DNA from: an uncultured bacterium
GTDB lineage: Bacteria; Patescibacteriota; Minisyncoccia; Phycocordibacterales; Phycocordibacteraceae
DNA: 64,000 nucleotides
Assembly (NCBI GenBank): GCA_947085985.1
Contig: CAMTYL010000004.1
Coordinates: 61,547 to 125,546, forward strand
Direction of reading: 5' to 3'
Numbering within the stretch: the first letter of the stretch is position 1; every line of letters begins with the position of its first letter. Made by a program: the position numbers and the translations under genes. Positions 36,585-37,203 of the stretch are shown here, piece by piece. The notes beneath the pieces were generated by a model. It was given only the letters and a program-made list of their open reading frames with translations. It was not told the DNA's origin and did not search any database.

Positions 36585-36613
36585 TTGACTTTTTGAACAG
36601 CATGTGCTAATAT
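36585..36613 (+). promoter_or_regulatory. near-consensus sigma70-type promoter TTGACT-17-TAATAT for the XRE gene
   Basis: hexamers and 17-nt spacing read directly; SD AAGGGAGGG follows. Confidence 0.6.
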
Positions 36614-36642
36614 ATATATTCCGTTAACCAAGGGAGGGCCAC

Positions 36643-37140
36643 ATGGCCTTTGATAGCAGTTCTTCTGAAAATACGACCCTCGACGCTTCGGCGGCCGAAA
36701 CGACTGGCCGTTCCCCCAACCCGGTGGACCTGCACGTCGGCGGACGCATCCGCATGCGCCGCCGGCTGCTCGGCGTCAGCCAGGAACTCCTCGCCGACGA
36801 CCTCGGCCTGACCTTCCAGCAGGTGCAGAAGTACGAGCGCGGCGCAAACCGCGTCTCGGCGTCCAAGCTGTACGAAGTCGCCAAGAGCCTGCAGACCTCG
36901 ATCGGCTACTTCTTCGACGGCCTCAACGACCCGGCGACGGCCAAAGCCGACGGCGTAACCGACAGCGGCGCCGAGCTGACCATCCACGACTTCCTGATGA
37001 CTTCGGAAGGACTGGAGCTGGCCCAGCTCTTCCCCAAAATCAAGAAGGGGGGCGTTCGCCGGCGGATCCTCGACCTGGCTCGCGTCATGGTCGAGGATGA
37101 AGAAGTCGCTGAAGACGACGAAGATCGCGCCGCCCCCTAG
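36643..37140 (+). CDS. XRE-family helix-turn-helix transcriptional regulator with acidic C-terminal tail; GC3-rich, foreign-looking
   Basis: HTH_3 block [47 protein letters not shown]; ~67% GC. Confidence 0.75.
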   Translation: [165 protein letters not shown]

Positions 37141-37164
37141 AACCTGGGCGCCGGCACAACATCA

Positions 37165-37203
37165 GGGGCGGTTCCGCAACGCGGAACCGCCCCTTTTCTT
37201 TTT
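37165..37203 (+). terminator. rho-independent terminator
   Basis: GGGGCGGTTCCGC-aa-GCGGAACCGCCCC then TTTTCTTTTT. Confidence 0.7.

Follow-up and report, generated by a model that had tools for sequence, protein, structure and literature searches.

A GC-rich XRE-family regulator gene of Caulobacter-like composition is resident between rpsL and an M50 peptidase gene in a clade of Patescibacteria

How does a gene with the third-position usage of Caulobacter come to stand beside the ribosomal protein genes of an uncultured member of the Patescibacteria, and is it a newcomer there or an established resident? The locus that raises this question lies in a 64,000-nucleotide stretch of contig CAMTYL010000004.1 (assembly GCA_947085985.1, positions 61,547 to 125,546 of the forward strand; hereafter, the window), where positions 36585-37203 contain a single open reading frame (ORF), the gene for a 165-residue XRE-family regulator at 36643-37140 on the plus strand. 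An earlier description made from the letters alone, which we call the sequence-only reading, took this gene for an insertion peculiar to the genome at hand. The results described here point, instead, to a long-standing resident that is of the CdxA/PraR/PhrR type and carries one of two exchangeable allele classes, class A.

The compositional anomaly of the gene is pronounced. The G+C content at third codon positions (GC3) is 0.819, the highest among the 81 ORFs of the window (mean 0.555, standard deviation 0.069), that is, about 3.8 standard deviations above the mean and well outside chance within the window. The overall GC content amounts to 64.3% for the ORF, 65.8% for positions 36700-37140 and 61.7% for positions 36585-37203, compared to approximately 53% for the window; thus, the extreme GC3 reported previously is borne out, whereas the accompanying figure of about 67% GC is too high for the ORF. 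The description of the gene as "GC-skewed" is a misnomer because the gene is GC-rich, with a G-C strand skew of only −0.075. The compositional borders are sharp, coinciding with the ORF and the terminator, and the third-position usage (C 0.53, G 0.29) is indistinguishable from that of Caulobacter-type genes.

The gene forms a transcription unit of its own, as had been proposed. Its promoter, located by a consensus scan and by the alignment of related loci, occupies positions 36585-36613 on the plus strand and consists of the −35 element TTGACT, a 17-nt spacer and the TG-extended −10 element TAATAT. The scan returned 6 promoter-like sites in 3 kb, compared to 1.8 expected, and the promoter hexamers are kept in 10 related loci, with TTGAC invariant and the −10 element appearing as TA[ATG]TAT, TATAAT or TATTAT. 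A Shine-Dalgarno-like GGGAGGG (36632-36638, plus strand) is located 4 nt 5' of the ATG, and its GGAGGG core is preserved in the locus alignment. Downstream, the scan detected an intrinsic terminator at 37164-37203 on the plus strand (hairpin 37164-37194) with a 14-bp stem that includes 11 G-C pairs, a 3-nt loop and a T-run; the terminator had been recognized before, with a stem counted as 13 bp. A GC-rich hairpin followed by a T-run is present 3' of the gene in all 10 aligned loci, and the stem GGGGCGGTTCCGC itself recurs in 6 of these, with both allele classes represented. The coordinates and strands of the ORFs agree with the layout previously outlined, in which the gene is divergent from the str operon, with rpsL (36070-36480, minus strand) as the upstream neighbor, and converges with the gene for a 208-residue M50 peptidase (37213-37839, minus strand). 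At a distance of 2.6 kb there is a ComEC competence gene, and a tblastn search of the 64-kb window detected no XRE paralogues.

The distribution of the gene among relatives answers the question of residence. A search with the M50 protein recovered loci from metagenome-assembled genomes (MAGs) labelled Paceibacterota, Kaiserbacteria, Patescibacteria or 'Saccharibacteria', which have the L28, M50, rpsL, rpsG and fusA neighborhood in common; this assigns the window to a Kaiserbacteria-like member of the CPR/Patescibacteria. The same order, with XRE on one strand between rpsL and M50 on the other, was found in at least 10 independently assembled Patescibacteria lineages, namely, the window, L003 (GCA_023264415), L006-L009 (contigs named 'Hain_') and L042, the species-representative MAGs L010, L011 and L012, and, further, L044, L045/L046 and L047/L048. 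All relatives with an M50 identity of at least 75% carry the gene; it is absent from the slot in 7 more distant Paceibacteria that keep M50 beside rpsL (L020-L022, L030-L033; M50 identity at most 63%), where the slot spans 72-597 bp and is empty or holds unrelated small ORFs. The flanking genes of the XRE-bearing lineages differ by a synonymous divergence (dS) of 0.17-3, and in every bearing locus the GC3 of the XRE gene is 0.69-0.84, compared to 0.44-0.65 in the flanking genes. The gene is inherited and clade-wide rather than freshly inserted, and the claim that it is peculiar to this genome is refuted by orthologues of the same composition in the same slot, the very outcome that the sequence-only reading had named as speaking against it. 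An assembly chimera was rejected because the same junctions are found in independent assemblies from different samples. We found no report of the CdxA/PraR/PhrR family, or of transfer of XRE genes, in Patescibacteria or Kaiserbacteria in the searchable literature.

As a separate observation, the rpsL/M50 slot has also gained a CYTH-domain gene in L011 (4627-5188) and, in L042 (5137-7281), a CYTH-domain gene together with a Band_7 gene and a small ORF; the slot therefore seems to act as a general integration hotspot.

To judge from sequence similarity, the window protein belongs to the CdxA/PraR/PhrR family. A database search returned thousands of homologues of about 140 amino acids, those listed being 64-76% identical to the query, and the named homologues among the matches listed came from Caulobacter or other Alphaproteobacteria. 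The nearest cluster outside the candidate phyla radiation (CPR), P0003, whose members are named Caulobacter sp. or Caulobacterales bacterium, shows 85% identity over 78% of the window protein, and the identity to Caulobacter/Caulobacterales orthologues is in the range of 79-85%. The helix-turn-helix (HTH) domain is 94% identical to those of the Caulobacter-type proteins P0003 and P0004, and the C-terminal domain is 66-73% identical to those of alphaproteobacterial homologues. The previous remark that the HTH resembles regulators of high-GC lineages is thus confirmed, both the composition and the closest relatives pointing to Caulobacter/Caulobacterales. Among phage sequences, a tblastn search detected homologues only in Caulobacter, Brevundimonas, Agrobacterium, Sinorhizobium and Rhizobium phages and in 7 records without a named host (42-63% identity, the best match being 63% over half of the protein), and the homologues found by tblastn in a plasmid collection are essentially only alphaproteobacterial.

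CdxA (CCNA_00049) of Caulobacter crescentus has been described as the ancestral XRE regulator of the Alphaproteobacteria, encoded in a neighborhood that is conserved throughout the class and the genes of which go unnamed in the text of that study, and has been treated as orthologous to PraR of Rhizobium (R. leguminosarum) and Azorhizobium (A. caulinodans) and PhrR of Sinorhizobium (McLaughlin et al., PMC10688885). In our data, the P0003 gene on contig L041 lies directly downstream of lnt (apolipoprotein N-acyltransferase, recognized from its translation), and the homologue in Caulobacter henricii (L049; 143 amino acids, 71% identical to the window protein) is embedded in the order miaB-phoH-ybeY-corC-lnt-XRE-metK-trmB, at a position roughly 33 kb into the chromosome record that is compatible with cdxA being CCNA_00049. 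Like the characterized members (PMC10688885; PMC4149787), the window protein is alignable from about residue 22, contains an HTH with the invariant FQQ.QKYE..NR.S.S, a helical C-terminal domain and an acidic tail, and is encoded by a stand-alone single gene; the similarity extends over the full length and includes the family-specific C-terminal domain. It differs in an extra, CPR-specific N-terminal leader of 20-25 residues, in a promoter without TTGCAA, unlike PraR's own, and in its host and context: the known family appears confined to Alphaproteobacteria with their phages and plasmids, whereas the window gene resides in a Patescibacteria clade. Because it is located between rpsL and M50 instead of in the lnt-XRE-metK-trmB neighborhood, the gene is a xenologue rather than a positional orthologue. 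Its allele falls into the CdxA-like class and not into the class of the short, 125-residue Caulobacter paralogues. The RtrA, RtrB and CdxB paralogues and TgrL of phage phiCbK are products of the same radiating family, and phage-borne copies such as TgrL show that the family is mobile (PMC10688885).

Two observations outside the CPR concern the same family. P0012, a protein of 138 amino acids on a 2.9-kb ENA contig, is a natural chimera that joins an N-terminal HTH half resembling type B (see below) and the 125-residue paralogue, MSDPIDVGVGARIRIRRRELGVSQGLL, to a CdxA-like second half, which shows that paralogues in this family recombine outside the CPR loci too. On L005 (GCA_031426695.1, JASJPM010000005.1; 622 kb, GC 64.6%), the gene for P0004, which is 80% identical, lies amid IS66 transposases and a tyrosine integrase, and the cluster listing assigns a further protein of this contig to the P0003 cluster, so that two close paralogues coexist in one high-GC genome, one of them in a region rich in mobile elements.

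Within the CPR, the alleles fall into two classes. Type A comprises the window, L003, L006, L042 and the short-contig proteins P0005, P0010 and P0011, which are CdxA-like and 73-82% identical to one another. Type B (L010, L011, L044, L045, L047, P0122 and P0124-P0127) is a CPR-only clade with a neighbor-joining (NJ) bootstrap of 79% and is approximately 45% identical to the window protein. The type-B HTH is 85-87% identical to that of a 125-residue paralogue named Caulobacter sp., and the type-B C-terminal domain is divergent, with at most 45% identity to anything else; the L012 allele represents a further divergent, type-B-like form. Across this divide, the leader MAFDSSSS. opens most proteins of both classes (L003, L045 and L047 start otherwise); the window protein begins with MAFDSSSSE, a start specific to the CPR loci and shared with none of the alphaproteobacterial proteins shown.

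The window gene combines features of both classes. Judged by the flanking genes, its nearest relatives are L010, L011 and L044, with rpsL, rpsG and L28 proteins 99-100% identical and four-fold-site identity in these genes of 0.73-0.84, compared to 0.41-0.68 for other lineages; all three carry type B. The first 12 codons of the window gene are 92% identical at the nucleotide level to those of L044, and sliding nucleotide identity to this locus reaches 95% over the promoter and the first codons, falls from 95% at 36610 to 41% at 36670, stays at 40-60% from approximately 36670 to approximately 37090, rising to 65-78% only in the HTH core, and recovers to 81-88% in the last codons and the terminator. 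The comparison with L003 gives the reverse picture: 41-66% before 36670 and 75-88% in the gene body (51% at 36610, 86% at 36700). Accordingly, we place an approximate 5' recombination breakpoint at 36670-36700, upstream of which the sequence resembles L044/L010 (type B) and downstream of which it resembles L003 (type A). Because the nearest relatives by flanks carry type B, the gene body of about 440 bp was exchanged by recombination, and homologous exchange of this body within a constant frame of promoter, leader and terminator is the simplest reading. The two variants of the XRE promoter do not co-vary with the allele class.

The gene evolves under constraint. The ratio of nonsynonymous to synonymous divergence (dN/dS) is 0.17-0.53 between CPR alleles and 0.17-0.33 between the window and its type-A relatives; because these values are below 1, the gene is subject to purifying selection. 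The ratio is 5-10 times that of the neighboring genes (0.00-0.11), and for several pairs the HTH evolves more slowly than the C-terminal domain. Between lineages, the identity at four-fold degenerate sites is 0.29-0.48 for M50, compared to 0.25-0.28 expected by chance, and 0.44-0.76 for XRE, compared to 0.36-0.47 by chance. The dS of the XRE gene between lineages is 0.4-1.1 by the Nei-Gojobori method (NG86), which is biased for genes with strong base bias, so that the dS values for this gene are unreliable on that account. With the same caution, the dS between the type-A alleles of CPR and Caulobacter-type genes (0.83-1.5) is similar in magnitude to that among the CPR type-A alleles (0.58-1.06). 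GC3 is relaxed only in L006 (0.73) and L012 (0.69). The candidate explanations for the persistence of the high GC3 are early transfer with slow amelioration, repeated import or conversion from Caulobacterales, and GC-biased gene conversion (gBGC) or selection at a recombining locus.

The Pfam HTH_3 profile (PF01381) matches residues 36-90 along its full length (profile positions 1-55) with 44.5 bits, compared to the cut-off of 23. In the AlphaFold (AF2) model, which has a mean predicted local distance difference test score (pLDDT) of 84, an N-terminal leader of 26 residues (36643-36720, plus strand, as for the domains that follow) is predicted to be disordered (pLDDT 47-54). The leader precedes a five-helix HTH_XRE DNA-binding domain at residues 27-91 (36721-36915), identified by Pfam, by the model (pLDDT 97-98) and by Foldseek, and, after it, a family-specific helical C-terminal domain, residues 97-150 (36931-37092; pLDDT 85-96), the modelled helices of this part of the protein spanning residues 97-104, 110-118, 121-132 and 136-163. 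The acidic tail (37093-37137), defined by its D/E content, is helical in the model. Although the sequence-only reading considered this tail unusual, it is a family trait: the D/E content of the last 20 residues is 45%, which lies inside the 15-55% span of the family (mean 31%), and at least 40% is reached in 25 of 120 homologues.

Foldseek matched the HTH to C.BclI, C.AhdI, ClgR, SinR and P22 c2 with a root-mean-square deviation of about 1 Å (0.9-1.4 Å for C.BclI, C.AhdI and P22 c2); neither sequence nor fold searches returned a solved homologue of the C-terminal domain, the matches being limited to the HTH. This domain presumably mediates dimerization or partner binding. The five-helix HTH of P22 c2, 434 cI, SinR, ClgR, DdrO and the C proteins of restriction-modification (R-M) systems superposes at about 1 Å, and dimeric, operator-binding repression would be expected; these Cro/CI-type repressors differ in their C-terminal domains, and the window gene comes without a peptidase, a SinI-type, TPR or R-M partner. 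Among closer homologues, PraR is a repressor that binds promoters containing TTGCAA, including its own, and is antagonized by CinS (PMC4149787; PMC10688885), and the Caulobacter paralogues and phage TgrL have common binding profiles and repress hfiA, affecting adhesion and phage production (PMC10688885). By homology, the window protein is most likely a dimeric, repressor-type regulator.

Some more specific identities were considered and rejected: a type II antitoxin (HipB, MqsA and Y4mF scored 19-23 bits, compared to cut-offs of 62-335, and no toxin was found in 12 loci), an R-M controller protein (there are no R-M genes in any locus, and the similarity is that of a generic HTH) and a prophage CI/Cro repressor (core genes flank the XRE gene in all loci, and no phage homologue exceeds 63% identity, over half of the protein).

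Taken together, these results suggest a scenario that we consider probable: a functional XRE factor of the CdxA/PraR/PhrR family from a Caulobacterales-like donor was fixed in a CPR subclade, and its bodies have since been exchanged by recombination. Under this scenario, the ancestor of one Kaiserbacteria-like subclade (Paceibacteria, Patescibacteria) would have gained the gene and fixed it as a stand-alone unit, with a sigma-70 promoter and an intrinsic terminator, where a variable slot separates the rpsL promoter from the 3' end of M50. The gene would have been inherited since, with the A and B alleles of the slot having the promoter, 5' leader, 3' end and terminator in common and the body of about 440 bp being swapped between lineages by homologous recombination; the window gene is such a mosaic, its promoter and leader resembling those of its closest, type-B-carrying relatives and its body that of type-A L003. 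The N-terminal HTH would, by homology, bind DNA, probably as a dimer held together by the C-terminal helical domain, and most likely repress a small regulon, possibly including its own promoter. In this account, the gene with its signals, its family and distribution, the mosaic and the purifying selection are direct results, whereas the direction of the transfer, the dimeric repressor action and the autoregulation are inferred.

Several observations weigh against this scenario. GC3 is barely relaxed despite a large synonymous turnover, for which old transfer followed by neutral amelioration fails to account. The monophyly of the CPR type-A alleles has an NJ bootstrap of only 20%, and there may have been several independent type-A imports. 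The lnt-XRE-metK synteny, the marker of the alphaproteobacterial orthologue, is by necessity absent. With regard to function, the PraR hexamer TTGCAA does not occur in the XRE-rpsL intergenic region (36481-36642), nor does the window show an enrichment of it (30 occurrences, compared to 23.8±5.4 expected), no palindrome is conserved across all 10 XRE promoters, where only degenerate TGTACA and GTT-Nx-AAC features were seen, and motif and palindrome searches identified no DNA target for the XRE protein.

Other accounts of the origin of the gene have to be weighed against the same data. A recent, genome-specific insertion that has not yet been ameliorated would be in keeping with the most extreme GC3 in the window, the sharp GC borders and the Caulobacter-type third-position usage; however, the slot, promoter, leader and terminator recur in all those lineages with diverged flanks, and close relatives consistently carry the gene, syntenic orthologues that largely refute this possibility and make it very unlikely. 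A stronger case can be made for repeated re-import from Caulobacterales or gene conversion, or gBGC at a recombination hotspot, as the cause of both the high GC3 and the allele incongruence. The dS between type A and Caulobacter-type genes is no larger than that among the CPR type-A alleles, which themselves form a weakly supported clade, the nearest relatives of both classes are in Caulobacter, GC3 is un-ameliorated, recombination at the locus is demonstrated, and the ComEC gene is close by. Nevertheless, the CPR-specific leader, tail and terminator are kept, the CPR sequences cluster in the NJ tree and are not interleaved with those of Caulobacter, and sharp GC borders suit a cassette better than a conversion gradient; we therefore regard this possibility as real but rather unlikely. 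More speculative, and in our estimate improbable, is the proposal that the gene is host-derived: a clade that lives on or takes up DNA from Caulobacterales would have captured members of the host's XRE family for adhesion and phage response twice into one expression slot, kept the host-like sequence and codons and swapped the alleles. If true, this would parallel phage phiCbK, whose TgrL acts on the CdxA/RtrA regulon of the host, and the gene would mark the identity of the host of an uncultured CPR lineage, besides being a candidate tool of regulatory cross-talk between symbiont and host.

Further alternatives concern the role of the gene. Control of the adjacent str operon (rpsL-rpsG-fusA-tuf) from a shared divergent promoter region, as the sequence-only reading suggested for rpsL, would fit the conserved divergent layout, in which a mere 33 bp or so separate the two −35 elements; yet relatives without XRE show this same rpsL promoter and leader hairpin, the spacer between the promoters is the least conserved part (40-58% nucleotide identity), and the intergenic region contains neither a shared operator-like palindrome nor TTGCAA, so that this suggestion is not upheld and such control seems quite improbable. 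Dimers of XRE proteins bind short inverted repeats, and the palindromic CGTAC-N5/6-GTACG core of a repeated element described below is over-represented in the window (7 occurrences, compared to 0.79 expected), which would make this element a conceivable target, as the sequence-only reading also proposed. However, the element includes further conserved, paired-looking segments typical of structured RNA, all its copies lie on one strand and none is near the XRE gene, a copy is present in L027, a locus that yielded no XRE gene up to about 4 kb from M50, and the motif characterized for the family in Rhizobium, TTGCAA, is unrelated; binding of the element is thus highly unlikely. Finally, the gene might be the remnant of a mobile module, be it a prophage repressor, the antitoxin of a toxin-antitoxin pair or an R-M controller. 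The best structural matches are C.BclI, C.AhdI and phage repressors, family members are found in alphaproteobacterial phages, and there are weak NCBIfam matches to the RstR, DicA, HipB-like and MqsA families, but these are confined to the generic HTH and score far below the family cut-offs, and in none of the loci examined does the XRE gene adjoin an integrase, phage, toxin or R-M gene, leaving this option extremely improbable.

By itself the gene is an ordinary XRE regulator; what is unusual is its evolutionary setting, with a probable capture between phyla from Caulobacterales-like donors, the exchanged allele classes and the lasting donor-like codon composition. The reduced genomes of CPR/Patescibacteria encode few regulators, and for most lineages no host is known. 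Because both allele classes have their closest relatives in Caulobacter/Caulobacterales, the gene provides a testable hint as to the partners in DNA exchange. The locus is, moreover, a small cassette system in which alleles of about 45% identity replace one another while promoter, leader and terminator stay constant, and a GC3 of about 0.8 held in genomes with a GC3 of about 0.55 could inform the debate on gBGC versus selection.

Turning to the surroundings of the XRE unit, the putative promoter of rpsL and the str operon (TTGCAT-17-TATAGT) is located at 36523-36551 on the minus strand, identified by sequence and conservation; the consensus scan missed it because its −35 element matches the consensus at only 3 of 6 positions. 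Its hexamers are invariant in 10 XRE-bearing loci and are also found in L020-L022, which lack XRE. Within 36481-36551 (minus strand), this promoter is followed by the rpsL leader hairpin CTCCC-AAGC-GGGGG and a U-run that ends about 8 nt before the rpsL ATG, and this hairpin, which could be an attenuator or a ribosomal-protein operator, is kept in all XRE-bearing loci as well as in the more distant L020-L022.

The repeated element, about 75 nt in length, has the organization GGCGCGGG, variable stem, GAG-CGTAC-N5/6-GTACG, variable stem, CGGGACCCGCAACAACGCAGAT. Its copies (13071-13145, 15910-15985, 26206-26280, 54667-54744 and 57863-57939) are all on the plus strand, even those amid minus-strand genes, and one copy was found near position 1954 of L027. 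An Rfam scan of the window returned one tRNA only and no gathering-level match for the element, which resembles a structured RNA or leader not yet curated as a family, with several copies in each genome.

A second variable slot is located within the str operon, between rpsG and fusA. In the window, it holds the gene for an SH3+NlpC/P60 cell-wall hydrolase (34459-35358, minus strand), the GC3 of which, 0.69, is the third highest in the window. In L003 (3960-4802), the slot contains a different NlpC/P60 gene (27% identical), L006 (1020-1574), L044 (3275-3793) and L047 (1636-2196) have a Peptidase_M15_4 gene, and L042 has nothing at this position. That peptidoglycan hydrolases are encoded inside a ribosomal operon may have to do with an episymbiotic lifestyle.

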